A stretch of 15,267 nucleotides of DNA from a virus. The stretch covers positions 1 to 15,267 of the IMG/VR virus record IMGVR_UViG_3300037882_000065. One strand, 5' to 3'. The translations under genes were made by a program, and so were the position numbers. The notes under the pieces are model-generated. The model made no database searches, had not been told where the DNA came from, and saw only the letters and a program-made list of their open reading frames with translations. Each line of letters begins with the position of its first letter. The stretch's first letter is position 1. Positions 1 through 15,267 of this stretch are shown here, piece after piece.

Positions 1-99
1 AAAAGTGCCACCATGAACTTATCGCCGTCGATACGTTGGCCAGCAACAAGACTTGCGTGTTTTCTGTCCGGACTTAAATCGATAGCCATCCAAGTATCC
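1..99. repeat. Terminal overlap copy 1 (identical to 15169-15267); a circular-assembly overlap, not a biological repeat
   Basis: Compared base by base: aaaagtgccaccatgaactt...gatagccatccaagtatcc at 1-99 equals 15169-15267. Both copies are cut exactly by the window ends and lie inside the terminase reading frame. Confidence 0.9.
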
Positions 100-1058
100 T
101 TCTCACGATCAAGCTTAAAGGAATCATCCTTACACTTCTTCCATTCGGCTTCTGAGATGACTGGATTAATCATTGAAACAAACTGGCAAAGGATCTCAGT
201 CCTAAATATATCTTCTCGGTCTGACAAAGAATCTTTAATGTTGTCCTCATGAACCGTGTGGCCTAAAGAGGGGTTACTTTGATACCAAGCCTCTTTATCG
301 TCAACAGCAGCCCCCGGTTCTGCCGACCATTCAAACCATCCAATAGAATCATCTGCCCCAGATGCCGCAGCTAGTCCTCGTTCTCTAAATTTAAGAAGTA
401 AAACCGATCCTGCATGGCCTGCATTGCTGTAGAAATATGCTTGAGGGTTTTTATTTGACATCTGAGTAAATCGCATGCTTGACCAAACATCTTCTGTATC
501 GAATTCGCGTAACTCATCGATGTGAATTACATCCGGCCCTGCTATACCACGCGCGGCTGAGTTTCCTGCTCTAATTAGGTAGCGAGCCCCATTCTTAAAT
601 CTAATCTCTTGGCTTCCCTTAGACTCAAACTTCTTAGCAAAGTTTTCCTGAAGGATATGAGAGTCATCAATCATCTGCCCTACCTTAAAAAAGATTTCTG
701 CTGAGGTAGTGAGTTTGTGAGCTGTAGCAAGGTGCATCTTCTCGCCTAGTCTGTAAATACCAAACAAGATCCGAAGCGCCATAAATGTTGACTTGCCCTG
801 TTGTCTCGGAAGCATGATGCCCACTAGCGGATGAGCCCATCTAGAATCTGCTTTGTATTTCAAGCTCTCGATTGCAAGCAATTCCTGCCAAGGTAGAAGC
901 GGAAACCCGATCTCTTTGCAAAAGTCGATCATCTCTTGCCCTCTAGAAGGTAAATCTAGGCTTGGAGACATGATTCTGGGCGTTTGTGAGCCATAACGCG
1001 GTTCTACTACCCCTTCCTGCGCCCGTGTGAGCCCGATAGAGCCGTTTTCAGCCGTCAT
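1..1058 (-). CDS. terL: Terminase large subunit, N-terminal ATPase part (continues across the circular junction into 14760-15168; full protein 488 aa)
   Basis: Not in the ORF track because it runs off the window edge. Hand translation from ATG 1058-1056 is open down to base 1: MTAENGSIGLTRAQEGVVEPRYGSQTPRIMSPSLDLPSRGQEMIDFCKEIGFPLLPWQELL... Walker A is GIMLPRQQGKST (786-821) and Walker B is VIHIDE (513-530). The frame runs into MAIDLSPDRK at base 89, which equals 15257. Confidence 0.9.
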   Translation of the reverse strand, partial: MTAENGSIGLTRAQEGVVEPRYGSQTPRIMSPSLDLPSRGQEMIDFCKEIGFPLLPWQELLAIESLKYKADSRWAHPLVGIMLPRQQGKSTFMALRILFGIYRLGEKMHLATAHKLTTSAEIFFKVGQMIDDSHILQENFAKKFESKGSQEIRFKNGARYLIRAGNSAARGIAGPDVIHIDELREFDTEDVWSSMRFTQMSNKNPQAYFYSNAGHAGSVLLLKFRERGLAAASGADDSIGWFEWSAEPGAAVDDKEAWYQSNPSLGHTVHEDNIKDSLSDREDIFRTEILCQFVSMINPVISEAEWKKCKDDSFKLDREKDTWMAIDLSPDRKHASLVAGQRIDGDKFMVAL

Positions 1059-1060
1059 GA

Positions 1061-1815: not shown

Positions 1816-1827
1816 TTATTTACCTCC

Positions 1828-1849: not shown

Positions 1850-1852
1850 GTA

Positions 1853-2471: not shown

Positions 2472-2893
2472 ATTAAGCACCTCTGTATCATGTAAGACCC
2501 ACATCCTGTACAGCGGTCAATATCTGCCTCTGTGGGTTCGCTAGTAAGATGACCGTATTTTAATATGAGTAGTGGCAAGAGATCCTCAAGTCGGATGATG
2601 GCGGCATAGTCACGCGCATCCTCTCCCTGTCCGTTGAGTCTGATTACTCCAAAGCCCAATTCCCCCGAAACGGCTGTGCGAGTTTTCAGCTGTGCTAAAT
2701 ATGCTTTTGGTTGGAATCCAGCGCGGGCTTTCACCTCAACATCAAAAGGCACATTAACAATATCCTTGCCACTACCCCTTCCCACACATGCGCCTTGCCA
2801 TACAGTCGATAGGTACTGTGCGACTACGCGCTCTGTGCGGAAACCTCTGTGTTTCCTGTGCTGACTAGCCATTAACAGCTTTGCATTTGGCAC
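2393..2893 (-). CDS. Hjc-like PD-(D/E)xK nuclease (putative Holliday junction resolvase) with a C-terminal CxxC-x7-CxxC tail
   Basis: HRGFRTERVVAQYL...GRGSGKDIVNVPFDVEVKAR follows the archaeal-Hjc pattern G..ER....L....R..SG..D....E.K. The tail reads CTGCGSYMIQRCLIC. The start is ATG 2893 or ATG 2872 (MASQ, overlapping the upstream stop). The 3' end overlaps the FmdB gene by 79 nt. Confidence 0.55.
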   Translation of the reverse strand: MPNAKLLMASQHRKHRGFRTERVVAQYLSTVWQGACVGRGSGKDIVNVPFDVEVKARAGFQPKAYLAQLKTRTAVSGELGFGVIRLNGQGEDARDYAAIIRLEDLLPLLILKYGHLTSEPTEADIDRCTGCGSYMIQRCLICQPTTTHANDAILVKRSITDGTIDQ

Positions 2894-3041
2894 ATTGCCA
2901 AGTTACTACACCATTTACAGAATCAGATGAAATATCCTCTAAGTCTCTTATCTGTACCGGCTCATTACATAACTGACATGGAACGAATGCTGACATAAGA
3001 TCAACCCATTCGCCATTGATCTTAATCCCTACAGTACCCAT
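2865..3041 (-). CDS. Small zinc-ribbon protein (58 aa), function unknown
   Basis: MGTVGIKINGEWVDLMSAFVPCQLCNEP...WQCAKCKAVNG carries two CxxC pairs. I chose ATG 3041, which forms a TAATG overlap with the upstream stop and follows GGAAGTGAG. The track version starts at 3107, inside the upstream gene. Confidence 0.5.
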   Translation of the reverse strand: MGTVGIKINGEWVDLMSAFVPCQLCNEPVQIRDLEDISSDSVNGVVTWQCAKCKAVNG

Positions 3042-3709
3042 TAAATTCTCACTTCCTGTGGACGCCATTTTCCATCGCTTCCCATGCGATACCAATTCGT
3101 AGGGCACTTAGCCTCACCTGTGCGTGGTGCATGACTGCAGAAGTATCCACCCCATGCTCTGCCATTTTTCTCGCCTTCTTTCCAAATTTGGCTGCCATGT
3201 TCGCAAGACGGAACTTGAGCAGCTTCTGGTGTACCCAAAATGTCCTGCACTAAATCAAGCGCCTTCTCTAAGGTAACAGGTGCATCGACTACGCCACGAT
3301 ATTCCCCAACAGGTGTAGTCCAGTAGTCCTGATCATCTGGCTTAACATCTTGAACTGGTGGCTTTACTACTTTTGTAGCAACCACCTTGCTCATTTCCTC
3401 TCGGCTTGGTCTCTTTCCTTTAGCAGCATAACCTGCATTTGCAAGTGCCCGACCGATTGCCGAAGTTTCACAATTCTCCAATGCAGAAGTCTGATTAACG
3501 CCGCGATCAGTAACCTTTTCCTCAGCGAGTCCTGTTGAAAACGCGGAGCTGCATTCAGCAGTCTTAAATAAATACGCTTTGACAATGTATCGATCCTTTT
3601 CACACACTTCCAATTCAGTCGATATGCGAAAATCTGGATAGTCCTTAATAAACTTTTCAAGTCTCACCTCTACTGTCTCGTAATCGGCTAAATTAAACAT
3701 AGAGCTCAT
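3041..3709 (-). CDS. Putative Rad52/Sak-like single-strand annealing protein with a Cys/Trp-rich C-terminal domain
   Basis: N-terminal sequence: YETVEVRLEKFIKDYPDFRISTEL...VKAYLF...STGLAEEKVTDRGVNQTSALENCETSAIGRALANAGY. This resembles the Rad52 N-domain pattern (beta-hairpin then helix, A.E.AET.A.KRAL..FG). The C-terminus reads CEHGSQIWKEGEKNGRAWGGYFCSH...CPTNWY. This is motif-level recognition only. Confidence 0.45.
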   Translation of the reverse strand: MSSMFNLADYETVEVRLEKFIKDYPDFRISTELEVCEKDRYIVKAYLFKTAECSSAFSTGLAEEKVTDRGVNQTSALENCETSAIGRALANAGYAAKGKRPSREEMSKVVATKVVKPPVQDVKPDDQDYWTTPVGEYRGVVDAPVTLEKALDLVQDILGTPEAAQVPSCEHGSQIWKEGEKNGRAWGGYFCSHAPRTGEAKCPTNWYRMGSDGKWRPQEVRI

Positions 3710-3971
3710 TCTCCTCTGTTGCTAATTGTCCGCCTAATGCGGCATAAGCTGCCATGTCTACCCATGTGTCGATCTGCTGTGCTGTCTCATTAGTCCTTGC
3801 AAGCTTAACCAATAACATAATTCCAGCGACTTGATAGTCATGTATTGGTGTTTGTAAGTATGCTGAGATGAGCATTGCGGTGTGTCGCAGGTTATCCGCA
3901 GGGTGACCGTATGAAAGGCCACGCTGGCTAATTGTGTCTGTGGCTGTAAGAAGGATCTCATTGGCTTTCAT
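3693..3971 (-). CDS. Conserved phage helical protein (DUF6378-like as I recall the family), function unknown
   Basis: RGLSYGHPADNLRHTAMLISAYL...IMLLVKLARTNE...DTWVDMAAYAALG matches the widespread phage pattern R..YG.p..nf..iA..w..yl...dva.mm.llK.aR...D...D.aGYA. I chose the ATG at 3971, which forms an ATGA overlap with the upstream small ORF. The track start at 3980 is a TTG. Confidence 0.55.
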   Translation of the reverse strand: MKANEILLTATDTISQRGLSYGHPADNLRHTAMLISAYLQTPIHDYQVAGIMLLVKLARTNETAQQIDTWVDMAAYAALGGQLATEENELYV

Positions 3972-4129
3972 TCTTGCCAAAAATCCTGACGGCTTGTAGA
4001 CCGTCCTTGATGATATCCCTCGCGTAAGCCTTTTTTATACGAAGTCCTTTGCACATCTATGATTACTATAGTAAAGCTAATAATCATGCCAATAATGCAG
4101 ATTAACAGTAGCTTGTCTGTATTGCTCAT
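3968..4129 (-). CDS. Small single-pass membrane protein (53 aa), not in the ORF track
   Basis: Hand translation: MSNTDKLLLICIIGMIISFTIVIIDVQRTSYKKGLREGYHQGRSTSRQDFWQE. A strong RBS, GGAAAGGGAG, lies 5 nt before ATG 4129. The stop TGA overlaps the next ATG (ATGA). Confidence 0.6.
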   Translation of the reverse strand: MSNTDKLLLICIIGMIISFTIVIIDVQRTSYKKGLREGYHQGRSTSRQDFWQE

Positions 4130-4263
4130 GTTGCTCCCTTTCCAGCGATATCTTCGCTGTTGGGATTAGTGTTGCATAGACCTATGGCAAATTTTGTTCA
4201 TTTTGGTAACGAAACCATAACGATTCTCCGATGTCTACGGCATCATCCAGAGTGCGTTTTATG

Positions 4264-5013
4264 TCAAGCGTATAATCGTCCATAAAGGGTAAACGATCCG
4301 TCCTTATTTATAGGCACTAGCATAGGGCTTACTCTGTCTCCATGTGTTTCTATGACTGCTACGCTCATCTGCCAATTAGCGCTTCCAGCCTTCAAATAAG
4401 AGGCTTTCTTCTTGTCCATAACATTACCTGCCTCTAGCCCCCATAAAGTCCTGTACGAGGCTCCTATGCCCTCTGTGAAGGCACTAATCCCTGCTCTGTG
4501 GGTATGTCCACAAACCACCGACTTACCAAACTTCTTAGCCAAACCAAGAGCTGTGAGACCGGCATTAGAGTTCATTGAGCCTTCGTCTCCGTGGACTAAG
4601 ACCCATCCTTTGTGAAACTCAAAGGGCTTTTTGTGGAAGCGGATGCCGAGACCTGCAAAGTCCATAAACTTGGCGTATTCAAGCTCTGGTAATCCAATGA
4701 GGCTAGGTGCTCGTAGTAGCGTATGGTAGAGCCTGTCTGTGTGATTGCTGCGAGTGACATCTGTTGTGCCGAGTTCATAGAGAATATCCTGAGCAAGGCT
4801 TCTGTCAGCATCGAGCGTTCCTTCCCATTCTAATTTAGTACCCTGTGCCCAACGACTTTGCGACTGCATGTCAAGCTCATCGCCGGTATTTAGGACTAGG
4901 TCAAACTTCTCGCGCTTTACTAACTTGATTAGATTCTTGACTGCTTGCTCATGATGATATGGGATCTGTAGATCTGAAATCACTAAGTAGCGTTTTTTAG
5001 TCATCGTCCTCAT
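4264..5013 (-). CDS. Calcineurin-like metallophosphoesterase (phosphatase or Mre11/SbcD-like nuclease fold)
   Basis: The ordered motifs are ISDLQIPYHH, NTGDELD, RSNHTD, LVHGDE and VCGHTHR, matching the DxH / GDxxD / GNH / H / GHxH signature set. The alternative start ATG 5004 (MTKK) overlaps the upstream stop. Confidence 0.8.
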   Translation of the reverse strand: MRTMTKKRYLVISDLQIPYHHEQAVKNLIKLVKREKFDLVLNTGDELDMQSQSRWAQGTKLEWEGTLDADRSLAQDILYELGTTDVTRSNHTDRLYHTLLRAPSLIGLPELEYAKFMDFAGLGIRFHKKPFEFHKGWVLVHGDEGSMNSNAGLTALGLAKKFGKSVVCGHTHRAGISAFTEGIGASYRTLWGLEAGNVMDKKKASYLKAGSANWQMSVAVIETHGDRVSPMLVPINKDGSFTLYGRLYA

Positions 5014-5221
5014 CTTCGTAATCGCCGAACCTTTCTGGATCGACTGGGTCTGGCAAGATCCAATGAGGATAGGCTTGAGGCTCTGTAATCATAAACATGG
5101 CTATATCTTCTGCAAAGCCTGCTCTTTTCAAGCTGCAAAAATACTCATAAAGCCCAATGCAGTAAGCATCGAGTTTTGAGTACCCTTGTTCCTCCAGTGC
5201 CTTAGTTGCTTTTCTTGCCAT
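4997..5221 (-). CDS. Hypothetical 74-aa protein with an acidic C-terminal tail (DYEDEDDD); first gene of the early module
   Basis: The ORF fills the gap with no competing frame. Its ATG is directly abutted by a DnaA-box 9-mer. No family recognised. Confidence 0.5.
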   Translation of the reverse strand: MARKATKALEEQGYSKLDAYCIGLYEYFCSLKRAGFAEDIAMFMITEPQAYPHWILPDPVDPERFGDYEDEDDD

Positions 5222-5229
5222 GTGGATAA
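5221..5229 (-). promoter_or_regulatory. Third perfect DnaA-box 9-mer (TTATCCACA), whose last A is the A of the ATG at 5221
   Basis: The plus strand reads tgtggataa at 5221-5229. The minus strand reads GGGACACTTATCCACATGGCA. It shares the 11-mer ACTTATCCACA with the distal box at 1841-1851. Confidence 0.45.
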
Positions 5230-5236
5230 GTGTCCC

Positions 5237-5428
5237 TTACTTTTTAAGAAGTTCCATCATCTGTTCTTGGCGTGTCTCTATTCTTGCTAAACGATCTGCA
5301 AGAGAGGAGCCACCATTTGGCGTAAGAGTCCAAAGCCATCCACGAACCAAATAACGCAAACCGCCGACAAAAACAGCAAGCGTAGAAGTAATGGCAAGGA
5401 TGAACCCTGCCCATTCATTTGCACTCAC
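5237..5428 (-). CDS. Holin-like or lysis-accessory membrane protein (63 aa, one TM plus a charged C-terminus)
   Basis: The TM segment is WAGFILAITSTLAVFVGGL, followed by RLARIETRQEQMMELLKK. The GTG start overlaps the upstream stop (GTGA). It is the last gene of the lysis cassette. Confidence 0.55.
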   Translation of the reverse strand: MSANEWAGFILAITSTLAVFVGGLRYLVRGWLWTLTPNGGSSLADRLARIETRQEQMMELLKK

Positions 5429-5634
5429 TCCATTCTGCCGTAATCTTTACGGTTCTTGTCTGCCCACGCTGCAACAGGTGCAGTAATGCCAGCGATCAAG
5501 ATTGCGTACTCTGGAGCAAAGTCCATTGCTAGTGCAAGAGTTGCTGCTACCGCAGATGCGCCAACCCCGATTAAATAATCTTTGAACATAGCCTTGAATT
5601 TAGGTGACTTCAAGCGCTTAATTAGTTTCTTCAT
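5425..5634 (-). CDS. Putative holin (69 aa, two TM segments)
   Basis: Basic N-terminus MKKLIKRLKSPKFK, then TM1 YLIGVGASAVAATLALAM, TM2 YAILIAGITAPVAAWA, and a charged C-terminus. It has an ATGA overlap with the upstream hydrolase gene. Confidence 0.6.
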   Translation of the reverse strand: MKKLIKRLKSPKFKAMFKDYLIGVGASAVAATLALAMDFAPEYAILIAGITAPVAAWADKNRKDYGRME

Positions 5635-6086
5635 GCTTTACCTCCTAGTAATGGGATGTTAAAAAACTTTTGATTCTCATCGCCAGCCTTCGTAAAACTG
5701 ATATGGATGTGGCTGGTATGCGGATTGATTCCTCTGTACTTGTGCCAACGCCAGAGGCTTCTAGCGCTTGCAATCTTTCGGTTAAATATGACATATGCAA
5801 TGCGCTTATCTGACTTGGCTGCAATTCGAATCTGGTCGGCAACGTAAGCAGCTGTATTGGCTTGTCGGTTGAAATCAGCATCGAGATCGAGAGCGCGGAC
5901 ATACCCTGTATAAGGGTCAGGGTTGTGATCGCTCTTTGTGGCTTGATGCCGCAAGTCTCCGATTGTCCCGTCAGAATCACGCTTTCGATCTGGATAAGAA
6001 TCGTCTGCCTGCTCTCTGAGTTGGATTACGGACTTACTCAGTCTCGGGCGCATTTTTGATATTGAGGTAAGTAGCGTATTCCTCAT
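5631..6086 (-). CDS. Putative zinc-dependent (LAS/M15-like) peptidoglycan hydrolase, the endolysin candidate
   Basis: DGTIGDLRHQATKSDHNPD...ALDLD...YVIFNRKI...W..YRGINPHTSHIHISF has His/Asp metal-ligand-like motifs. It sits directly upstream of two holin-like genes. The start is uncertain (ATG 6086 or ATG 6053) and neither has a clear RBS. Confidence 0.45.
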   Translation of the reverse strand: MRNTLLTSISKMRPRLSKSVIQLREQADDSYPDRKRDSDGTIGDLRHQATKSDHNPDPYTGYVRALDLDADFNRQANTAAYVADQIRIAAKSDKRIAYVIFNRKIASARSLWRWHKYRGINPHTSHIHISFTKAGDENQKFFNIPLLGGKA

Positions 6087-6162
6087 CTGTCATCGGACGA
6101 ATAACTGTTTCGCCTGTTGCGATGTTATCTTCTGTGATAAGTGGACGAGTTTCTTTAGTCAT
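6034..6162 (-). CDS. Possible 42-aa ORF (hypothetical), not in the ORF track
   Basis: Hand translation: MTKETRPLITEDNIATGETVIRPMTDEEYATYLNIKNAPETE. It has a TAATG overlap with the upstream stop at 6162. It overlaps the 5' end of the hydrolase ORF, so only one of the start models can be right. Confidence 0.3.
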   Translation of the reverse strand: MTKETRPLITEDNIATGETVIRPMTDEEYATYLNIKNAPETE

Positions 6163-6662
6163 TAGAACGCTCCATAAATTGCTATAGTGCCTGTATTAGT
6201 GGCATTGAATGTGTTTGCTGTCGTAAAATCGACTCGATTGATTGCAGTTGTCGAATTGTAATTTGCAACTATTCCATAGTAGGCAGCGTTTGAGCCATTG
6301 TTTGAGCCAAAACCTTCAATAAGTTTAGGACAAGCTTGATTGGCATAATCAACGACAAAATCTTGTAAATGAACACCTGCTCCAGATGATCTAGTTGTAT
6401 CAATAAAAGCATTTTGTGCCGCTACAATAGAGGTGCTTGTTCCATTGAAGATAAGTGTCGTTTGATAATAATTGGTGCCGGAATCATTGTTAAAAGTAAT
6501 GTCTAAAACGCCGGCCGTGGTCAATGCAACATTTTGCACACATAAACGTAATTTCTTAACTGGCGGAATGCTTGTAAATGAAACAGATGATCCGCTAGTC
6601 GGAGTCTGAGTAGTCCCAATTTGTAGCCAGATGTCTCCACCCGGAATCGCTGTAAATCCCAT
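6162..6662 (-). CDS. Tail fibre or receptor-binding protein candidate (166 aa, beta-rich)
   Basis: Last gene of the tail module. It is Ser/Thr/Asn/Gly-rich and predicted all-beta (FNNDSGTNYYQTT..., NATNTGTIAIYGAF). TAATG coupling to the upstream gene. Confidence 0.45.
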   Translation of the reverse strand: MGFTAIPGGDIWLQIGTTQTPTSGSSVSFTSIPPVKKLRLCVQNVALTTAGVLDITFNNDSGTNYYQTTLIFNGTSTSIVAAQNAFIDTTRSSGAGVHLQDFVVDYANQACPKLIEGFGSNNGSNAAYYGIVANYNSTTAINRVDFTTANTFNATNTGTIAIYGAF

Positions 6663-6994
6663 TATGAAATCTCCGTTCCGTAAGCATTGAATGAAAGATC
6701 AGCAGTTGAGGCAAATACACGCACTTTGTCCGTGGCTGCCAAAGTCAAGCCAACCGTCAAGATAACAATGCCACTAGGAGCGATTGTGATGTCATAGGCA
6801 ATGTAGTCTTTGTCGGCAGTTGCAGCACCGGCTGCACTTGTCGAAAGTCTAAAGGTTGCTGCTGCTGTTGTTGATCGGTTAGATACTGTCAAAGACGAAA
6901 TGATCGTGCTAGTGGAAGCTGGGACTGTGTAAAGGTCTGCCTCTGTCGTAGCTGCTGGAGCAGATTGCCCCAAGATTTTATATGCTGTTGCCAT
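6662..6994 (-). CDS. Small tail-tip structural protein (110 aa)
   Basis: MATAYKILGQSAPAATTEADLYTVPAST..ISSLTVSNRS is an N-terminal pattern I recognise from small virion/tail proteins of several phage groups. It sits between the fibre-stub ORF and the distal protein. Confidence 0.45.
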   Translation of the reverse strand: MATAYKILGQSAPAATTEADLYTVPASTSTIISSLTVSNRSTTAAATFRLSTSAAGAATADKDYIAYDITIAPSGIVILTVGLTLAATDKVRVFASTADLSFNAYGTEIS

Positions 6995-6997
6995 GCT

Positions 6998-7165
6998 TTA
7001 TGCTCCCATCAATAGGAAAGGGTGAATGAAACTTTCGATTGAAAGTTGCAGTGAGTAGGTTGTTGAGTCGATTGCGTTTCCTAGCGTTCTAATGTCTAGC
7101 GCGCCGTCTTTTACATAACCCGTGTTATCGGGCGTAGGCCAGTTATATTCCGGCGTGTTAGCCAT
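6998..7165 (-). CDS. 55-aa protein carrying a tail-fibre N-terminal motif, not in the ORF track
   Basis: Hand translation: MANTPEYNWPTPDNTGYVKDGALDIRTLGNAIDSTTYSLQLSIESFIHPFLLMGA. Excellent RBS TAAGGAG 7 nt upstream. The Y.WP.P......V..D...L...ID motif is typical of N-termini of actinophage-type minor tail/fibre proteins. Confidence 0.6.
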   Translation of the reverse strand: MANTPEYNWPTPDNTGYVKDGALDIRTLGNAIDSTTYSLQLSIESFIHPFLLMGA

Positions 7166-7182
7166 TTATTGTCTCCTTAGTG

Positions 7183-8337
7183 TTAAGCATCGAATGTGTC
7201 CCATGTTACAGCCGGATCAACGTCATTCCAAATGAGGGCAGGATCCACATCTTGCCAGCGTGTCGGCGTAACTGAGTAAGCCACATCCGAGCTGTCAAAA
7301 GTCAGGCTCATTTGAACATTGTTGAAACTAAAATTCCAGCCTTCTACAAAACCAAAGTAAGTCGTATTTTTAATAGGTAATGGCAAGTTATCGATTTCAA
7401 TGGCTGTATCCATCGAGATATTTAGCAAGGCATCAATATCGGCATCGATGAGGTTAGGCGAGTCTAATTGGATGGTGAAGGATGATAGTGAGGTGCGAGG
7501 ATAGGCTCTTAGCGTGATATAGCGATCTGCTTGTACTTGAGCATCCGTTGCGCGATCTAACTCTGTTGAGACCGATCCTGCTACCAAGCCGTAAGTAGCA
7601 ATGGATGTTGCATCCGAGGATGTTTTTTGATCGTTGGCCTTGTAGCTGAGAATGATTGAGTTCATGATGTCAGAAAGTGTTTTTTGGCTTGCTAGGCCGC
7701 TTGCCAAAATGTAATCCGTAGGAATGTTCAAGTAGCCAGATGTGCCAAGTGACAAGAATCGGCGGGACTCGTTAGCAAACCCTACGCTGCCTGTTGGAGT
7801 TTCGTAGATGTAACCAAATGCTTGAGTGGCATAAGTTGAGGCTAAAGAGTAGGCATCTGCTGGGCTTGCATTTCTGGCAGTAAACTCATAAACAGGAGGA
7901 GTGTCCACGGTATCGATGGTTACTCCAGCATCCGTAAAGATGCGAGTCATTCGATCATCGTCAAACTCTTTAGGCCAGTTTGTGTCACCGATAACAGATC
8001 GAGCCATTTGAGCAAAGGTTGATAGGGCTGAAATAGTCTGAATGGCTACCGTTGCCTTTGCCCCAGTAGCTTGAACGTTATTAGTAATGTTAGAGATTTT
8101 GCCAGTAAATAGAGTTACAGGAGTACCGTTGGAATCGTCAACCGTAATAACCACATCATCATTCATATCAAAGCCAAAGTCTTGATTGTTGGCGTTTAAG
8201 ATGCTAATAGTTGCATAACCTGCGCGGGACTGCTCCCAAACAGTTGTACGACCAAATGAGACACCTACGTTCCACAATGATTTATCTGTGAACGCTACGC
8301 CATCGATGGTTACGGTTGGGCTGGGAGACCAAGTCAT
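7183..8337 (-). CDS. Distal tail protein (Dit)-like minor tail protein, 384 aa
   Basis: Lies immediately after the tape measure gene with an ATGA overlap. The N-terminus TVTIDGVAFTDKSLWNVGVSFGRT...ATISILNAN resembles the siphovirus Dit N-domain. The C-terminus has the repeat WQDVDPALI/WNDVDPAVT. Confidence 0.6.
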   Translation of the reverse strand: MTWSPSPTVTIDGVAFTDKSLWNVGVSFGRTTVWEQSRAGYATISILNANNQDFGFDMNDDVVITVDDSNGTPVTLFTGKISNITNNVQATGAKATVAIQTISALSTFAQMARSVIGDTNWPKEFDDDRMTRIFTDAGVTIDTVDTPPVYEFTARNASPADAYSLASTYATQAFGYIYETPTGSVGFANESRRFLSLGTSGYLNIPTDYILASGLASQKTLSDIMNSIILSYKANDQKTSSDATSIATYGLVAGSVSTELDRATDAQVQADRYITLRAYPRTSLSSFTIQLDSPNLIDADIDALLNISMDTAIEIDNLPLPIKNTTYFGFVEGWNFSFNNVQMSLTFDSSDVAYSVTPTRWQDVDPALIWNDVDPAVTWDTFDA

Positions 8338-9668
8338 ACAACAGAAACCAGTCGAGATGCGCCGAGGTTACTAAAGGTTCCGCTTAGGGTTGCCTCTGTG
8401 TTAAGAATCTGAGCGATCTGTCTAGCTGTGCTAATTGGATCAATAGCCCCGCTTACATTGATATTGACGTTTGTAGCTGGCGCTTGGGATCTGTTGGGCA
8501 GATTAAATGCGTTGCCAGACGGTAAGCCAGAAGGTACGGTAGTTCTAGAAGAGGTTGGTGAACTTGCAGGAGAACTTGATCCAAAACTTAAAGCATCCTT
8601 AACTTTCCTCCCCAATTCTATAATCTTTTCAAAGCCTGAAATTAACTTGCCAACAAAGTTAATCACTACTGAAATGGCTAGTCCTATTCCTTCAATGGCA
8701 AGTTTAAAGACACCTGACAAAAAGGGTGCAACAAACTTTCTTAGGAAATCAAACAATGCCGCAAACTCATCCTTGTTATCTAGGACTGCTTTTTTAATTC
8801 TGTCAAAGGCACTCTTGAGGCCTTCAATGATTGGAGTAAAGAATTTCTTAGTAAAGTCTGAAACTTGTTTAAATGTTTCATTTAGTCCTTCTTTGCCACC
8901 CATGCCATCGATAAAACTTTGGACTGCTGGAACTACCTTGTTTACAATTACTTCAACAATGGGGGTAATGGCATCAAGAATAAATGCTCCGACTGTCTCC
9001 TTTGCTTCGTTAAAAGCAACTGACAAGCGAGCCATCTTGCCTTGGAAAGTGTCTGCCTGCTTGGATGCCTGTCCTTCAAAGGTTGCAGCTAGTTTGGCAG
9101 TTACTTGGTCAAAGGTGAGGGTTGCTAACTCAGCCTTACTAATACCTACGCCAAGACGTGAAAGTCCGGCTAGGTTGCCTTCCTGTGCCTTTGATAAGGC
9201 TTCGGTAACTGCTTGTAGGCTCTTGCCTGTACCTGCTGAAATATCAATCGCGATGGCTTGTAATTCTTGAGCCTTTGTAACATCTCCAGTAGCGCGGGTA
9301 AGCCGATCTAAGGAAGGACGAAGCTCATCATCTGTAACACCAAATAATAAAGACTGCTTGAGAATGTAATCTTCTGTGGCCTTAATTTGGTCATCTGTTG
9401 CGCCTGTCACATTCTTTAATGTGGTTGCTAATTTAGCCTGCGCCGCTTCATCTTCAATAGCAGCTTTAACGCCATCAATGGCTAACTTGCCTGCATAGGC
9501 CGCTGCTGCAACTCCTGCTGCTAAAAAGGCTGCGCCTGCGACCTTGCCAAACTTAGAAACTTTATCGCCAAAGGTAGTTACATCATTATCTGCGCCTTTA
9601 AGGCTCTTAGTAAAGTTACTGACATCGGCTAATAACTTAAGCGTTAACGCTCTACTATCTTTAGCCAT
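8334..9668 (-). CDS. Tail tape measure protein (444 aa from ATG 9668)
   Basis: Long alpha-helical Ala/Lys/Glu-rich protein with a hydrophobic stretch (VAGAAFLAAGVAAAAYAG) and a second membrane-like segment (LAIEGIGLAISVVINFVGKL). It sits between the chaperone region and Dit. The start forms TAATG with the upstream stop after GAAGGAG. The track start at 9677 is a GTG. Confidence 0.85.
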   Translation of the reverse strand: MAKDSRALTLKLLADVSNFTKSLKGADNDVTTFGDKVSKFGKVAGAAFLAAGVAAAAYAGKLAIDGVKAAIEDEAAQAKLATTLKNVTGATDDQIKATEDYILKQSLLFGVTDDELRPSLDRLTRATGDVTKAQELQAIAIDISAGTGKSLQAVTEALSKAQEGNLAGLSRLGVGISKAELATLTFDQVTAKLAATFEGQASKQADTFQGKMARLSVAFNEAKETVGAFILDAITPIVEVIVNKVVPAVQSFIDGMGGKEGLNETFKQVSDFTKKFFTPIIEGLKSAFDRIKKAVLDNKDEFAALFDFLRKFVAPFLSGVFKLAIEGIGLAISVVINFVGKLISGFEKIIELGRKVKDALSFGSSSPASSPTSSRTTVPSGLPSGNAFNLPNRSQAPATNVNINVSGAIDPISTARQIAQILNTEATLSGTFSNLGASRLVSVV

Positions 9669-10135
9669 TATGTCCACTCCTTCAAAATCTTATCAAACGA
9701 TTTAGTCCACTCAGCTACAATGTAAGGCTGGATCCTGCGTAATGTTGGATAAATAAAATAACCTTTCGAGCCTGCTCCGCCAGAAGGATTAGGCCCTGAC
9801 CAAACAGGAAACTGCTTTAGTTTATTAGTACCAAACTCCGAAGGCCCCCAGAGTACTTTAGTCGTTGCACCCCCTGAAAACTTTTGAGCTGCAAAGCCAA
9901 ATGTAATTTCACCTATGCGGCTAGACTTTTTAACTTTAGAGCCTTGTGTAATGCGAGTAGCGACTGCTCGAGACTGTAGCCCTGATGAGGCACTAATTAC
10001 TTCTTTCCTAGCGTATTCGGCTAGAGCGCCAGATTGCCGTTGGGCTTCTTCTGTCGCTTGCTTGTCCATATTACGAAGAGCCTTAAAGACTTCTGAGAGT
10101 TGCTTTTTGTTAAGAGCGACTGCATCATCTGCCAT
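9668..10135 (-). CDS. HK97 gp10-family-like neck / tail-completion protein (155 aa)
   Basis: LSEVFKALRNMDKQATEEAQ...GPSEFGTNKLKQFP...YFIYPTLRRIQPYIVAEW fits the gp10-family layout (N-terminal helices, EFGT motif, C-terminal P.l......i). RBS GGAGGA 6 nt upstream. Confidence 0.5.
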   Translation of the reverse strand: MADDAVALNKKQLSEVFKALRNMDKQATEEAQRQSGALAEYARKEVISASSGLQSRAVATRITQGSKVKKSSRIGEITFGFAAQKFSGGATTKVLWGPSEFGTNKLKQFPVWSGPNPSGGAGSKGYFIYPTLRRIQPYIVAEWTKSFDKILKEWT

Positions 10136-10504
10136 TACGTTCCTCCAATACTTCTATAGCTGTAAGAATATCCTCGGCAGTTTGCCACTTATCCATAGGG
10201 ATGTGAGTGGCTATTGCCAGTTCCACTAAGAGTCGGCTTACGCTTCCTCTTGCGTGACTTTTGGGTCTCCTTCACCTACTTCGATATCGTCTACTGATTC
10301 CATCCAGACATCTAATGTCTTAGTTGGCTTTCCGCCTGCATCTCGCTTCATGGCGCTGTGTGCCACAAAAAGGATGTCCCACATTCCGCCAAACTGAGAG
10401 ATAATTTTTTTAGTTGTCATCTCCCAGCGGGCGTAATCTGGCGGGCGAACCATGTAAGTAGTTTCGGATCCGTCTATGTATTTAATTGTTATCTGCTGTT
10501 GCAT
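10125..10504 (-). CDS. Predicted -1 frameshift product of the tail assembly chaperone (gpGT-like, about 126 aa)
   Basis: After slipping on C_CCA_AAA (10265-10259), the -1 frame is open for 44 codons: SHARGSVSRLLVELAIATHIPMDKWQTAEDILTAIEVLEERNGR*. It exactly covers the otherwise ORF-free gap 10136-10237 and ends at TGA 10127-10125. Candidate internal starts in that frame lack an RBS. Confidence 0.5.
10238..10504 (-). CDS. Tail assembly chaperone (gpG-like, 88 aa)
   Basis: Small acidic protein located directly after the major tail protein gene. It has a slippery heptamer 19 nt before its stop. Confidence 0.65.
   Translation of the reverse strand: MQQQITIKYIDGSETTYMVRPPDYARWEMTTKKIISQFGGMWDILFVAHSAMKRDAGGKPTKTLDVWMESVDDIEVGEGDPKVTQEEA
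10259..10265 (-). other. Candidate -1 programmed frameshift slippery heptamer CCCAAAA (X_XXY_YYZ in the zero frame)
   Basis: The minus strand reads GGT GAA GGA GAC CCA AAA GTC. An SD-like AAGGAG sits just upstream of the heptamer. Confidence 0.5.
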
Positions 10505-10527
10505 TGTTTGCTCCCGTTTCTAGTTAA

Positions 10528-10938
10528 CTACGCTGAGAAGGTTTCTGTAACCTCGCCCTTTGATACCTTGAATGTAAAGTCTACAGTCTGAGCATCTGTT
10601 CCAGCGCCTCCTGCTGTAGGAAACTCTGGCTTAATTGGAAATACGAATTGTGCGCCTGTTGCAGCTGTAAGTGTGATGCTTATATCTGTATCTGGTGCTG
10701 TCTCTGCTGCTGTCCAAAGAGCTTCACATACTGAGTTAGCCTTACCCCAGTCTGCCAACATTGATAGAGCAAACTCGCCTTCAATGTTTGTGGTTTTGTA
10801 AGCTTCGCCGTCAAGAGTTTGGTATGTCTCACGGACGTTTGTCTTTGTTAAAACTGCGCTTGTTGCTTGTGCTTCGATATCTGTTCCACCTGAGAAAGAT
10901 AGAGAAATATCGCGCCCTGTGATTACTACGGTTGCCAT
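10528..10938 (-). CDS. Major tail (tube) protein, 136 aa
   Basis: Position between the terminator-like gene and the chaperone. Small beta-rich protein, MATVVITGRDISLSFSGGTDIEAQATSAVLTKTN..., typical of tail tube N-termini. RBS AAAGGA. Confidence 0.65.
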   Translation of the reverse strand: MATVVITGRDISLSFSGGTDIEAQATSAVLTKTNVRETYQTLDGEAYKTTNIEGEFALSMLADWGKANSVCEALWTAAETAPDTDISITLTAATGAQFVFPIKPEFPTAGGAGTDAQTVDFTFKVSKGEVTETFSA

Positions 10939-10949
10939 ATTGTTGTCCT

Positions 10950-11336
10950 TTAGTTTGTTTGTGTATAGTAGGTAGAAACTCTGATATCGGAGACCAACAC
11001 ATTAGAAGGGCCGACTTGAGTTACTGTTGGTTTTTCAACCGCTCCGACTGTGTACCCTGCTGGGATCACCTTCAGAACACTTATAACGAGCTGCTCGAGA
11101 TTGTCGAGCGATGCAGGGTTGCTGTTATAGGCAACCGCTACAGATATGACTAAATTAATCTTTATGTGAAGTGTTGATTTGTTAATGGTCTCTAATTCTA
11201 AATATGGTGAATCTGGAACAGTCACCACAAAAGGAACCATAGGAGCCTCTGGTACATAGGCATACACATTGCCTGCAACGCCTGCAAAGGCTGTGGCTAG
11301 TGGCTGTCTGACTGTGTCTAAGATTGTGTTTGGCAT
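10950..11336 (-). CDS. Tail terminator / tail completion-like protein (128 aa)
   Basis: Position directly upstream of the major tail protein. The pattern L..AF.G....VYAYVPE....PFVVT resembles gpU/DUF3168-type terminators. TAATG coupling. Confidence 0.45.
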   Translation of the reverse strand: MPNTILDTVRQPLATAFAGVAGNVYAYVPEAPMVPFVVTVPDSPYLELETINKSTLHIKINLVISVAVAYNSNPASLDNLEQLVISVLKVIPAGYTVGAVEKPTVTQVGPSNVLVSDIRVSTYYTQTN

Positions 11337-11977
11337 TACTGCACCATTGAATCGGTATCGATAAACGCTCCGAGAAGTCCTGACACTCGATTGAAAAGGC
11401 TACGGCCTAAACGATATGGCGAGACGGTTGTAAAGTCTACGCCTTCGATCTGTCCACCCGGAGCGATACGGCTCTGGAATACTTCTACTGATACTGCTAG
11501 GACTGCTGACTCTACGGCTGCGTTCCCTACATAAGTAGAAGCGCCTGAAAGAGTTGCCAAGCCTGAAGGGATTACTTTTCTTTCGGTAACATCTGCGCCA
11601 GTAATAGCAACAGTAAAGTAACCGTTGAATTCTCTGTAAGCACCATCTAAGTAGATGCGCGAGCTTGAGCGAACAATAAAATTTTCAACATCAATGTTGC
11701 TTGACTCGATGATAGTAAAAGTGCCGTTAAATGGGGAGCCTACGCCTGTGATGACTACGCTCTGACCCTCTGAGAAATTGTTATCGCCTAAGACTCCATA
11801 AGTTGCGATGTTATCTTGCAATGTAACTGTGTCGATAGGACTTGAGTACTTGACCAGCATAGGCAAAATAACTGCCTCAGCTGTGTCAATTACATCTGTT
11901 AGATAAGCATCGTTATAGAGGGAACTGGAAACGCCAAGCACAGAGCGTAATTCGGCTGGTGTGACTATTGTTGCCAT
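11336..11977 (-). CDS. Head-tail adaptor (gp6/gp15-like connector) with a roughly 95-aa inserted beta-rich domain
   Basis: The N-terminus VTPAELRSVLGVSSSLYNDAYLTDVIDTAEAVILPML and C-terminus AAVESAVLAVSVEVFQSRIAPGG fit head-tail connector proteins. At 213 aa it is about twice the usual length. I chose ATG 11977 after AGAGGA. The track start at 11983 is a TTG. Confidence 0.55.
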   Translation of the reverse strand: MATIVTPAELRSVLGVSSSLYNDAYLTDVIDTAEAVILPMLVKYSSPIDTVTLQDNIATYGVLGDNNFSEGQSVVITGVGSPFNGTFTIIESSNIDVENFIVRSSSRIYLDGAYREFNGYFTVAITGADVTERKVIPSGLATLSGASTYVGNAAVESAVLAVSVEVFQSRIAPGGQIEGVDFTTVSPYRLGRSLFNRVSGLLGAFIDTDSMVQ

Positions 11978-12002
11978 TTCCAATTCCTCTCAATAAACGA
12001 CT

Positions 12003-12031
12003 GGGGGAGCGATCGGGAGCAACCGCCCCCC
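12003..12031 (-). terminator. GC-rich hairpin just downstream of the capsid gene (attenuating terminator or mRNA-stabilising stem-loop)
   Basis: The minus strand reads GGGGGGCG-GTTGCTCCCGAT-CGC(T)CCCCC followed by AGTCGTTTATT. That is an 8-bp G:C stem with one bulge and a 12-nt loop, in the 61-bp gap between capsid stop 12045 and adaptor start. Confidence 0.4.
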
Positions 12032-12044
12032 CATGATTAAGTGA

Positions 12045-13607
12045 TTAGGCTACGCTCAACTTACGGAACGCTGCTGGGTAACGGTTTACTACGCAAACAT
12101 ATCCGTATAGACCGATTTCAACCTGACCGTTTGCAACTACGTTTGCACGTAGTTCGATGCGGTTGCTCTCATGGAAGCGCATTGCGTTTGATGGGTAAAC
12201 CAAAGCATGCTTTGCGCCTGCATTGTCACCTGTGTAGTTAGCATCTACAACAAGACCAAGTCCTGCGACTGTTCCTGCTGTTGATCCTTGTGAGATCAAA
12301 CCGTTAGCGTTTGATGGAGCTGCTGCTGCGAACAGCGGACGACCTGAGCCATCAACTGCACCAAGTAGTCCAGCGAAATCGATGTCATCCTCTCCGCCTG
12401 TGTTTGCAACAAGCAGACGGTTTGGTGTTGAACGCATTACGCCGTAAGCGTCTGCAATTCCGTCAGCAATAGCCTTGTAAATTGTTGATCCTGATGATCC
12501 TGCTGCTGCTTCTGCTGCAATCTGAGCTGCGTATGCATCTGTCTTGATTGCGTAGGATTCAGCTAACTCGCGCAAATACAGGTCTAAAAATCCTGGGTCG
12601 CTGCGATCGAGCAACTCGACGTCCAGAATTCCGGCCCCCGCAAACTTGACTACAGTATCCTCTTGAAACGTGACTGTAGTGTCTGTTGATGAGAACTCTG
12701 CGCCCTCTGCTGTTACTGCAACTGTTGCCTTGGTTCCCAATTTTGGAGTGAAAACCTTCATTCCAGAAACAGGAAGCGCTGCTGTTTCGATTGAATCGAT
12801 AAATGGACGTGAGTTATCAATGATGCCGATAACATCCTTTAGGTAGTTAGGTGGAACCATACCTGTGTTTTCTGCAACTGTTGCAACCTGTAGAGCTGCA
12901 ACTAGATCGCGAGCATCTGCGTCACCGCGTGTTGCTTGGATCTGTGCCATTGCGTATTGTCCTGCTGTAACATCTAGGTTTACGCGAGGATTTGTGTAAA
13001 AGACTGGACGTGTTGTCGCAGCTGTTACTTCTGACTTTGCAGCTTCAACCGTCTCGGTTGATACTGCTTCTGAAACGGTTTCTGACACTAGGTCATCTCC
13101 TTCGGTCTTAGGTTCCTCGATCTGAGGTTCCTGGGTTGATTCGGATGCAGCTGTTCCTTGTGTTTCGGTTGCTGCAACCTTTTCCACTTCCGCACCTGGG
13201 ATTGCTCCCTCAGTAACGAGTGAAACTTCGATTAGTTGTGATGCGCTAATAGCCATAACGCCGTCCTTGTTGTCCCAAGCATTTACCTTGACACCAACGC
13301 TAAAATCTGAGCGCAAACCTGTTGCAGCTTCTTCTAATGCGTCATTGCCAGCAGTTGTCTTAGCGATCTTGAATGAAGCAGTGATGCCTGTTTCATCCTG
13401 TGACCACTCCATCAACTTGCCGATTGGCTTTGTCATTTCATGCTCTAGGACTAACTTTGTATTCTTGTTAAAAGTAATTGAGTTAGGCAAGAAAACAGTT
13501 GAACCAGCAGAAGTATTGCCGACTGAATCCCATTGAACGATGCGACCGGCAATGATGCGTGATTCTGCATCGCTTGCTGTAATTGTTACTGGCATTGTTA
13601 TCTTCAT
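12045..13607 (-). CDS. Fusion protein: HK97-type prohead protease (S78-like) + acidic linker + HK97-fold major capsid protein (520 aa)
   Basis: Residues 1 to about 140 read ...RIIAGRIVQWDS...LVLEHEMTKPIGKL...GLRSDFSVGVKV, with His and Ser in the expected protease context. Residues about 140-200 form a Glu/Thr-rich linker. Residues about 200-520 are capsid-like (ends ...LYGYVCVVNRYPAAFRKLSVA). No separate protease, scaffold or capsid gene exists. ATGA overlap with the portal gene. Confidence 0.8.
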   Translation of the reverse strand: MKITMPVTITASDAESRIIAGRIVQWDSVGNTSAGSTVFLPNSITFNKNTKLVLEHEMTKPIGKLMEWSQDETGITASFKIAKTTAGNDALEEAATGLRSDFSVGVKVNAWDNKDGVMAISASQLIEVSLVTEGAIPGAEVEKVAATETQGTAASESTQEPQIEEPKTEGDDLVSETVSEAVSTETVEAAKSEVTAATTRPVFYTNPRVNLDVTAGQYAMAQIQATRGDADARDLVAALQVATVAENTGMVPPNYLKDVIGIIDNSRPFIDSIETAALPVSGMKVFTPKLGTKATVAVTAEGAEFSSTDTTVTFQEDTVVKFAGAGILDVELLDRSDPGFLDLYLRELAESYAIKTDAYAAQIAAEAAAGSSGSTIYKAIADGIADAYGVMRSTPNRLLVANTGGEDDIDFAGLLGAVDGSGRPLFAAAAPSNANGLISQGSTAGTVAGLGLVVDANYTGDNAGAKHALVYPSNAMRFHESNRIELRANVVANGQVEIGLYGYVCVVNRYPAAFRKLSVA

Positions 13608-14722
13608 CGTGTCTCCTCATTGTGGATTAGATCTTCTTCTTCTTGGATCTGCTCAATGCTCATTGCACCAATGCGATTTAAGATTTCATAAACTTGTGCT
13701 CGCTGTAATGGATCTCCACGCAAGAAGTCATCTAACGAGAAGCGAACTTCTGTAGTGCTAGATACAAAGTCAGGCATAGATAATCTTTGTTCGATTGCCG
13801 TAAGAACATATTTCATAGAGAAATCGATAAGGGCTTTACGCTCCGAAATAGCGTTGCTGTATGTCATGCTTGTAGTTTCAGCACTTACAAAGTATGCAGG
13901 AAGGTTGCAGGCGCGAGCCAATTCGAGCGCGACATATTGACGAGCTTCATTCAGCTGTAGTTTTGCGGGGTCGATGCCCAGCGCCTGCAATTCGACATCT
14001 GCATTGAGAAACGCAGTTGACTTATTTAGTCTTGCTGTTCGCCATGATTCTAGAAGTTTTGCAATACGCTCTGCTGGAAGGTTTGTACCGTTTGACTTTA
14101 AGACTTGAAGAGGAACTGGCTCTTTAGCAAACGCCTCAGCTGCCTGTTCAAGCGCATGCGCCGCCCGGATAGTGCGACCTGCTCGATTAAGTAAACCTTC
14201 ATCTAATCCGTAAAACACAACGAGCGAACCTACGCCTTGATTTGGAACTATTGAACCGTCTACCTGATAGCCAACGATTTCAGTTTGTAAATTATTTAGT
14301 TTAGGTGTAACGCGATCTGGTGCAACGCGAGTCCAATGACGAACTCTACCTGTGTCACCATATTGTTCTAAGACTTGACCATAACCGAAACCATGTAGCC
14401 AGATATCTTCTGCAAGCCATGCATAAATTGCTGAACCGGGAACTCGTGGATCTGGTTGATTGATAACTGCCGGTGCTGCAACATGTGAGCCATTTAGTTT
14501 TGAATAAACTTCTAAAGGTAACCCTGCAAGCGTTGAGCAGATAATGTTACGAGCTCTTGCAATTGTTGGAATAGCCATAGCCTGACCGCGTGTTGCAGTA
14601 GATGGCGTAAAAGTAAAAGGATTAAAAGAAGAAGTATTATTAAACGGAGCAGGTGTAGAAGCTGCATCAACTGTAATTTCAGGAGCAGCAGTTACAGGCA
14701 GAAAAAACTCTTTGATTCCCAT
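13604..14722 (-). CDS. Portal protein (HK97-type, 372 aa)
   Basis: Lies directly downstream of terL. AIPTIARARNIICSTLAGLPLEVY...INQPDP...WLHGFGYGQV...ARACNLPAYFVSAE...MTYSNAISERKAL follows the HK97-family portal pattern. Confidence 0.85.
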   Translation of the reverse strand: MGIKEFFLPVTAAPEITVDAASTPAPFNNTSSFNPFTFTPSTATRGQAMAIPTIARARNIICSTLAGLPLEVYSKLNGSHVAAPAVINQPDPRVPGSAIYAWLAEDIWLHGFGYGQVLEQYGDTGRVRHWTRVAPDRVTPKLNNLQTEIVGYQVDGSIVPNQGVGSLVVFYGLDEGLLNRAGRTIRAAHALEQAAEAFAKEPVPLQVLKSNGTNLPAERIAKLLESWRTARLNKSTAFLNADVELQALGIDPAKLQLNEARQYVALELARACNLPAYFVSAETTSMTYSNAISERKALIDFSMKYVLTAIEQRLSMPDFVSSTTEVRFSLDDFLRGDPLQRAQVYEILNRIGAMSIEQIQEEEDLIHNEETR

Positions 14723-14749
14723 TGGACATATTATACACTATTTGTCCAA
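14722..14749 (-). promoter_or_regulatory. 7-bp perfect inverted repeat (TTGGACA/TGTCCAA) bracketing a TATAAT hexamer just before the portal ATG
   Basis: The minus strand reads CTTGGACAAATAGTGTATAATATGTCCAATGGGA. TATAAT (14735-14730) ends 7 nt before the portal ATG (14722). No Shine-Dalgarno sequence is visible for the portal gene. Confidence 0.25.
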
Positions 14750-14759
14750 GTTTTAGACA

Positions 14760-15267
14760 CTATCCTATCAAAATGTCAACTTCTGTCTCTGCGCGTGTCG
14801 CAAAGTGTGTAACCATGGCTGCGCCTACTGCGCCACAGATAATCCCAGATGCTTTGCGACCCATAACCCATCCGCCATCGCCTCGCTGTAGTTTGACGGC
14901 CGATAGGACTTGCTTATCTAATTCCTCTTGGCCTTCATGGATAATTCGACCACTAGAAACGGCTGAGACGAACTCATCGCAGCTTTGTTGATAATCCTGA
15001 GAGTTGATCTCGTAAACAGGAATGCCTGCTGGCGCTAATCGAGCTGCAACTGCCCCTGCCGTCGATTTTGAATAAGCCACATAATTAACAGGAAACTTTC
15101 GAACCCATGGAGCAATATCGTTTGCCATTTGTTTGTCATCGATCGATACTGGGTTAAACCAAGTCTGTAAAAGTGCCACCATGAACTTATCGCCGTCGAT
15201 ACGTTGGCCAGCAACAAGACTTGCGTGTTTTCTGTCCGGACTTAAATCGATAGCCATCCAAGTATCC
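14760..15267 (-). CDS. terL: Terminase large subunit, C-terminal nuclease part (joins 1-1058 across the circular junction; 15169-15267 duplicates 1-99)
   Basis: The track ORF 14760-15257 begins at an internal Met (MAIDLSPDRK...), but the frame stays open to the window end and is continuous with the ORF at 1-1058. WMAIDLSPD is the usual first acidic motif of the RNaseH-like terminase nuclease. Confidence 0.9.
   Translation of the reverse strand, partial: DTWMAIDLSPDRKHASLVAGQRIDGDKFMVALLQTWFNPVSIDDKQMANDIAPWVRKFPVNYVAYSKSTAGAVAARLAPAGIPVYEINSQDYQQSCDEFVSAVSSGRIIHEGQEELDKQVLSAVKLQRGDGGWVMGRKASGIICGAVGAAMVTHFATRAETEVDILIG
15169..15267. repeat. Terminal overlap copy 2 (identical to 1-99)
   Basis: See the feature at 1-99. 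Confidence 0.9.

Follow-up and report, generated by a model that had tools for sequence, protein, structure and literature searches.

Fusion of the prohead protease to the major capsid protein was called a common feature of small siphoviruses, among them the Microbacterium phages of clusters EE and EL, the Arthrobacter phages of clusters AN, AX and FE, the Gordonia phages of the CW and DM clusters, as well as Rhodococcus phage RRH1 (Jacobs-Sera et al. 2020, PMC7302621). It was also reported for Arthrobacter clusters AN, AM and AU (Klyczek et al. 2017, PMC5513430). We analyzed a gene of this kind in a 15,267-nt stretch of viral DNA (IMG/VR virus record IMGVR_UViG_3300037882_000065, positions 1 to 15,267), the whole of which is called the window below. 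The architecture is thus already known, and the window gene is a divergent metagenomic member of the family. Judged from the sequence, its open reading frame (ORF) is most likely read from two starts (probability about 0.65 for a divergent family member read in this way).

The actinobacteriophage fusions (BonaeVitae gp5, Decurro gp7, Maggie gp7, Atraxa gp5, Penoan, Gordonia CW/DM and RRH1) have the same order as the window protein, an S78 protease, a linker and an HK97-fold capsid domain in about 520 amino acids (aa). The genomes are also of one size class, 15.2 kb in the window and 14-17.5 kb in the actinobacteriophages with the fusion. Penoan (15,303 bp) and BonaeVitae (17,451 bp) share with the window the order terminase, portal, fusion gene and connector, and the window is a small (~14-18 kb) siphovirus-type genome in which tail genes complete this synteny. 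On the other hand, its G+C content is 45%, compared with 51.4-71.4% reported for Microbacterium phages (PMC7302621). S78 protease-major capsid protein fusions were further reported in the thaumarchaeal proviruses NCAV2-Pro1 and NitIsl-Pro1 (Krupovic et al. 2019, PMC6563490), which are archaeal integrated elements.

HK97 gp4 and gp5 have the same protease family (Peptidase_S78) and the same capsid fold (TM-score ~0.65-0.67) as the window protein. In HK97, however, the protease is encoded by a separate gene and enters the shell non-covalently, whereas in the window it is covalently joined to the capsid chain. The N-terminal extension of the HK97 capsid protein lies inside the procapsid and is then removed. 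By analogy, such an extension would also be removed from the window protein.

A different arrangement is found in lambda C/Nu3, herpes simplex UL26/UL26.5 and HFTV1 gp17/gp17.5, in which the ORF of an assemblin-fold protease contains an internal in-frame start (bioRxiv 10.64898/2026.09.13.751334). The second product is abundant, co-C-terminal and protease-less, and the protease is delivered sub-stoichiometrically via the shared assembly domain (bioRxiv 10.64898/2026.09.13.751334). In lambda, the herpesviruses and Haloferax virus HFTV1, the shared part is a scaffold that is later lost, whereas in the window it would be the capsid protein itself. Since the predicted short product holds the HK97-fold capsid domain, and is not a scaffold that leaves the capsid, we propose that the window gene works like these nested pairs, but is not a member of them.

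The fusion ORF starts with the ATG at 13607 on the minus strand, ends with the TAA at 12047..12045, and encodes 520 aa (Table 1). Its start overlaps the stop codon of the portal gene as an ATGA junction, which suggests that its translation is coupled to that of the portal gene. The portal gene (13604..14722, minus strand, 372 aa) was identified by Pfam Phage_portal (E=1e-35). On the other side, the fusion stop codon is followed by a gap of about 60 nt, a 215-aa ORF and then the tail genes. The fusion gene therefore lies between the portal gene and the head-tail connector and tail genes. Pfam and PHROG scans of the 15.3-kb window found no separate protease, scaffold or capsid gene.

Table 1. 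Positions of the fusion gene, its parts, its translation signals and the following stem-loop in the window
Feature	Position	Strand	Basis or remark
Full-length ORF: S78 protease, acidic linker and HK97-fold major capsid protein	12045..13607, stop codon included	-	Intact in related loci
Shine-Dalgarno (SD) sequence GAGGAG, 5 nt 5' of ATG 13607	13613..13618	-	Anti-SD duplex -8.6 kcal/mol
Prohead serine protease domain, aa 11-146	13170..13577	-	Pfam Peptidase_S78; herpesvirus-assemblin fold
His56 codon (CAT), putative catalytic His	13440..13442	-	Invariant in alignments
Ser103 codon (AGC), putative catalytic nucleophile	13299..13301	-	Invariant in alignments
Linker, aa 147-212, Glu/Thr-rich, acidic, predicted disordered	12972..13169	-	AlphaFold2 predicted local distance difference test (pLDDT) ~30
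HK97-fold major capsid domain, aa 213-520	12048..12971	-	E-loop hairpin ~284-318, spine helix 338-367; AlphaFold2 and Foldseek
Internal SD AAGGAG within codons E169-G170-D171	13102..13097	-	Anti-SD duplex -9.3 kcal/mol
In-frame GTG (Val174), predicted internal initiation codon, 8 nt 3' of SD	13088..13086	-	Always GTG/ATG in 80 relatives
Predicted nested product, 347 aa: short acidic N-terminal peptide and capsid protein, no protease	12045..13088	-	Conserved SD and start
G+C-rich stem-loop of 14 bp directly after capsid stop, no clear U-tract	12002..12033	-	Covariation

Apart from one locus cut by the contig end, the frame was unbroken (503-521 aa) in the related IMG/VR loci (80/80; 67-96% aa identity). 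Relatives with as little as 22% identity had the same full-length architecture. Since the frame is open in the related loci and the distant relatives are full length, a hidden stop or frameshift is in practice excluded.

The protease domain matched Peptidase_S78 (PF04586) with E=9.7e-11 and a score of 42.5 bits (cut-off 21), over positions 7-156 of the 165 in the profile. An AlphaFold2 model of aa 1-156 (pLDDT 86, predicted TM-score 0.80) was compared with PDB using Foldseek, and the top 50 matches were all herpesvirus proteases; the best was that of Epstein-Barr virus (1o6e, E=2.9e-5, TMq 0.55). Residues K51, H56, G63 and S103 were invariant in alignments of 113 and 121 sequences (22-96% identity), and the protease is therefore very probably active. 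His56 and Ser103 are presumably the equivalents of HK97 gp4 His65 and Ser114.

The linker is 20% Thr and 19% Glu, with a net charge of -10, over aa 147-205. Residues 151-168 are hypervariable with indels, whereas residues 171-190 are conserved (SETVSEAVSTETVEAAK). HK97 gp5 has a helical delta domain of about 100 aa before its N-arm, but none was predicted in the window protein, in which AlphaFold2 placed only two short helices (215-226 and 230-241) ahead of the capsid core. The disorder of the linker is a low-confidence prediction and stays compatible with folding on assembly. The linkers of many cultured relatives, in contrast, continue past the internal Met described below with a segment that is helical and scaffold-like.

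The whole-protein AlphaFold2 model, built from the 113-sequence alignment, was confident for the protease (aa 15-146) and mostly had pLDDT 70-93 over aa 213-520. Foldseek matched the capsid domain to HK97 gp5 (2ft1_G, TMt 0.67), to Bxb1 (9d9x, E=7e-11), and to D3 and Cozz (E ~1e-10). Microbacterium phage Oxtober96 (8eco) was also a structural match, but was set aside as an unrelated capsid family, not described in its paper as protease-fused. The Pfam scan of the C-terminal part found no capsid family even at E<=10, and the precomputed match of the protein to PF25209 (Phage_capsid_4) was only 'weak'. The sequence search of PDB with the protein and the 113-sequence profile found no relative, HK97 gp5 being undetected by the hidden Markov model (HMM). 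With tblastn, the major capsid protein of the Mycobacterium phage Optimus group aligned to aa 250-518.

An earlier note on this DNA had described one ORF with a protease, an acidic segment and a capsid protein, and this was borne out by Pfam, PHROG and the predicted folds. Its coordinates were exact, and the strand is minus. The protease signature that it saw in the N-terminal 140 or so residues corresponds to the Peptidase_S78 match and the assemblin fold; the two motifs that it quoted are present as LVLEHEMTKPIG at aa 52-63, containing His56, and DFSVGVKV at aa 101-108, containing Ser103. The Glu/Thr-rich segment of about 60 aa agrees with the composition given above, and the capsid-length C-terminal region, of about 310 aa, folds as HK97. 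The structure prediction that it proposed gave an assemblin fold for the protease part and an HK97 fold for the capsid part. It had also noted that no separate protease, scaffold or capsid gene exists, and none was present between the portal gene and the following gene. The delta-domain-like scaffold that it placed in the linker is doubtful, since this part is predicted to be disordered rather than helical.

PHROG 2263 ('major head protein', 551 positions) matched aa 12-518 on its positions 34-542 (E=3e-61). Since the match spans the full length of the protein, the fusion is itself a family. With tblastn, 124 cultured-phage records were matched, including 51 of Arthrobacter, 42 of Microbacterium, 21 of Mycobacterium, 5 of Gordonia and 3 of Curtobacterium phages. 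Fifty of the 124 covered at least 80% of the query, and most were annotated 'major capsid and protease fusion protein'. Among the cultured phages, Penoan of Curtobacterium matched best (E=3e-21, with 27% identity and 98% coverage), and the fusion proteins of Penoan, Atraxa and BonaeVitae covered 97-99% of the query. Identity to any cultured phage was only 24-28%, and nucleotide searches with the gene and with the whole window against 50,697 phage records gave no match.

Of the 8000 candidates scored in the protein search, 3373 had E<=0.001. The close relatives listed (72-96% identity) were 495-521 aa long, and many were encoded on ~15-kb contigs; they include one from NCBI LR797094.1 ('uncultured Caudovirales phage', 15,260 bp). 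The fusion gene thus belongs to a large uncultured clade of ~15-kb contigs. In one IMG/VR relative, a contig of 22.7 kb, the fusion gene is present twice (L003 and L012). When the capsid part was compared with 1.84 billion cluster representatives, 999 matched at E<=1e-3, 294 of them with E<=1e-10. The full-length representatives were mostly 500-600 aa long, and their capsid match began near residue 170-290, which indicated that most of them are fused. Two short homologues (P0204 and P0213) were considered as stand-alone capsid genes and rejected, since they begin inside the capsid domain and are probably fragments.

The earlier note had mentioned the fusion for Microbacterium cluster EE phages, correctly (PMC7302621), and had called it rare. 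The latter does not agree with the 3373 proteins, the 124 cultured-phage records, PHROG 2263 and the publications of 2017 and 2020. All the cultured relatives infect Actinobacteria, and we infer an actinobacterial host from this relationship. A search of genome contigs for the host gave a sole match, a 1.2-kb contig binned to a Planctomycetota metagenome-assembled genome, which was taken as uninformative.

At the sequence level, an in-frame start with its own ribosome-binding site was found 3' of the protease domain (Table 1). The N-terminal peptide of the predicted 347-aa product begins VSETVSEAVSTETVEAAK. All 14 nucleotide haplotypes among the 80 relatives keep AAGGAG or GAGGAG 5-8 nt before an in-frame GTG or ATG (14/14). 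The encoded peptide at the SD varies (EGD, EGE, E-EN or QGE, followed by V or M) and codons have been deleted, while the nucleotide motif is kept. Past the start codon of the ORF, this is the single alignment column at which at least half of the relatives have an SD with an in-frame start.

The conservation extends to synonymous sites. Third-position variation was zero in only 4 of 203 conserved fourfold-degenerate columns, and three of these were G170 (GGA), V174 (GTG) and V178. A Ser codon neighboring the internal SD and GTG, on the other hand, uses all four TCN codons among the relatives. GTG is the rarest Val codon in these sequences (205/3347, 6%), yet it is the sole Val codon at position 174, where it is swapped only with ATG.

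The anti-SD duplex of the internal site is stronger than that of the main start (Table 1); among the 25 annotated gene starts, it is level with the third-strongest. The coding strand of the 15.3-kb window has strong SD hexamers at only 13 sites, of which five are at the gene starts adopted in this analysis and two more (9682 and 3716) just 5' of likely true starts. RNA accessibility around both starts of the fusion gene was unremarkable and uninformative. The change of the linker from variable to conserved at this site agrees with a spacer that gives way to the functional N-terminus of a second product.

The site was also sought in wider relatives, and most of those sampled, down to ~25% identity, had an equivalent SD with ATG or GTG. 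In those at 46, 41, 37 and 33% identity, the best combination of SD and ATG/GTG in the linker was at the homologous place in each. Three representatives of 353-362 aa (30-33% identity) had been gene-called, independently, at the homologous ATG. They were rejected as stand-alone or split genes: their contigs are truncated, and the upstream frame is still open and ends in the protease C-terminus. At 6-8 nt before the ATG they have the SD GAGGAG, GAGGAGGAG or GAGGAAGGAAG, and we interpreted these gene calls as support for the internal start, not as evidence for split genes.

In the Penoan/Arthrobacter/Microbacterium branch, the otherwise unalignable linker has a conserved '...VAA.RKE..M' pattern. 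The site was located in four cultured phages, Penoan, BonaeVitae, Atraxa and Decurro, which have a conserved Met at 160-165 with GAAAGGA, GAGAGGA, GAGAGG or AAAGAGG 4-7 nt before it, whereas the internal start of the window is GTG. A set of 72 non-redundant distant members, obtained by HMM-based extraction, was scored for an SD duplex of <=-5 kcal/mol within the first 30 linker codons. ATG with such an SD was present in 35 of the 72, compared with an expectation of 4.7 derived from other 30-codon stretches of these genes, and ATG or GTG with an SD in 45, against 15 expected; the sequences are phylogenetically related, so that these enrichments overstate their independence.

Besides this relatedness, several points weigh against two starts. 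About 20 of the 72 distant members had no site at the thresholds used, and the internal start therefore may not be universal. The SD-like hexamer is made of Glu and Gly codons, which the acidic linker uses anyway, and GTG is a weaker initiator than ATG. For this clade, the AlphaFold2 model gives the short product no helical domain resembling a scaffold. A rough estimate of volumes suggested that protease at 1:1 would still fit inside a T=4 or T=7 shell (T=4 is a guess based on the genome of 15.2 kb), so that a single product is physically possible.

Such a single product, a 520-aa polyprotein with 1:1 protease that removes its own protease and linker by self-cleavage, would leave the internal SD and GTG unused. 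It agrees with the unbroken and conserved frame, and with the good SD of the annotated ATG and its coupling to the portal gene; the database annotation and the literature also treat the fusion gene as one product. We nevertheless consider it unlikely. It leaves unexplained why the SD Gly codon and the GTG do not vary at their synonymous sites while the codons next to them vary freely, why V174 alternates only with Met, and why an SD and start recur at the same place down to ~25-30% identity. These same observations could instead reflect a nucleotide element with another role, such as an SD-like pause giving the protease time to fold ahead of the capsid domain, an RNA element, or a codon by-product of a recognition or cleavage site. 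The site is indeed at a domain boundary and is followed by a conserved peptide (SETVSEA..TE[AT]VEA[AS]K), and a slowing of elongating ribosomes by internal SD-like motifs has been proposed, although this literature is disputed. Pausing, however, would not require a start codon, and the relatives have an ATG or GTG in frame 5-9 nt downstream in every case, including those with deleted codons. The nucleotide motif also persists where the amino acids that it encodes differ, and the region of the site is not predicted to be unusually structured. We regard a role of this sort as quite improbable. Programmed frameshifting was also considered, and is unlikely because no slippery sequence is conserved after the internal SD.

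An artefact of assembly or sequencing, in which an indel had merged a protease gene with a scaffold and capsid gene, was raised by the earlier note as an a priori possibility, and nothing further speaks for it. The 80 loci with the same open frame are on independent contigs from many samples, hundreds of homologues are full length (495-600 aa), and cultured, finished phage genomes carry the same gene. It can hardly be taken as a serious explanation. The conserved internal SD and GTG/ATG thus suggest that the gene probably also gives a 347-aa capsid subunit without the protease. This undercuts the 1:1 stoichiometry of protease to capsid that the earlier note had deduced, which becomes doubtful in view of a signal conserved at synonymous sites and across the family. 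On balance, we favor the view that the fusion genes of the uncultured clade and of the cultured Microbacterium, Arthrobacter and Curtobacterium phages are nested pairs, in which the bulk of the capsid protein would be protease-less and the full-length form minor. A search of the literature in the library at hand found no report of an internal start in protease-capsid fusions; such a start may be new.

With two starts, ribosomes at ATG 13607, loaded at the SD GAGGAG and coupled to the portal stop, would make the 520-aa protease-linker-capsid chain, and those at GTG 13088, with the SD AAGGAG, the 347-aa capsid subunit. Both products would co-assemble on the portal through their shared capsid domain, with the N-terminal extensions directed inward as in HK97. 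Tethering to the capsid chain would bring the protease into the procapsid sub-stoichiometrically, in an amount governed by the relative use of the two starts. Before expansion and packaging, cleavage by His56 and Ser103 would then free all subunits of their N-terminal extensions and degrade the protease itself. We infer the use of the internal start, the co-assembly, the inward topology and the cleavage.

The conserved motif VEA[AS][KR] is a candidate site for this maturation cleavage, or for docking. It is found at aa 186-191 (~13035-13052, minus strand), 12-30 residues past the internal start. It is kept from the clade of the window to ~30% identity, as TVEAAK, DVEASK, TVEAAR and AVEASR.

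The fusion by itself adds only a divergent, uncultured lineage of low G+C content to a known group. If the internal start is used, it would explain how minimal genomes set the dose of the protease and avoid one protease per capsid subunit. It would then be a third solution to the targeting of the protease, through a shared capsid domain, beside non-covalent binding (HK97) and a shared scaffold domain (lambda and herpesviruses). The strategy of C/Nu3 and UL26/UL26.5 would be extended from the scaffold to the capsid protein, and the single-product annotation of the fusion family in the databases would be incomplete. The idea of nested starts is testable in the cultured phages of clusters EE and AN, which carry the same signal.

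The stem-loop after the capsid stop (Table 1) is conserved in relatives and showed compensatory changes in 12 of its 14 pairs, and 97% of the cells were paired, compared with 70% in shuffles. A core of (U)GCUCCCG around the loop is nearly invariant. This stem-loop is probably an 'I-shaped' terminator or an mRNA-stabilizing hairpin for the capsid message.

The portal gene (ATG 14722) has no SD (duplex +0.5 kcal/mol). A TATAAT box ends 7 nt before its ATG (14723-14760, minus strand), and many relatives have TGnTATAAT 3-9 nt before theirs. This arrangement suggests that a late promoter may produce a leaderless or near-leaderless portal-capsid transcript. Leaderless transcripts are common in Actinobacteria.

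The 215-aa ORF (11336-11983, minus strand) is at the position of a head-tail adaptor and gave no Pfam or PHROG match. It is about twice as long as the adaptors of Penoan and BonaeVitae (~115-120 aa), and is 189 aa in relatives. Its true start is probably ATG 11977, preceded by the SD GAGAGGAA, and not TTG 11983.

Bases 1-99 and 15169-15267 of the window are identical, which indicated a circular (or terminally redundant) assembly of a complete genome of 15,168 bp. The large terminase gene spans the junction, with its C-terminal part at 14760..15257 (minus strand) and the rest at ~1..1000 (minus strand); the joined gene has 524 codons, 33 of which are duplicated. HNH endonuclease genes are present at 1061-1375 and 1853-2308 (both minus strand), one of them immediately upstream of the terminase gene, an arrangement also seen in some relatives (L085 and L086). 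Pairing of HNH and terminase genes is usual in HK97-like cos phages.

In the non-structural part of the genome, the genes at 2393-2893, 4264-5013 and 1375-1815 (all minus strand) encode a RusA-like resolvase, a metallophosphoesterase (PHROG 221, E=3e-62) and a transglycosylase-like protein. Neither a polymerase nor an integrase was found among the window ORFs scanned. A 280-aa ORF on the plus strand (8428-9270) is antisense to the tape-measure gene (8334..9677, minus strand) and is most likely spurious. All genes are on the minus strand, and the GC skew flips sign near 5500 and again near 8000-8500.

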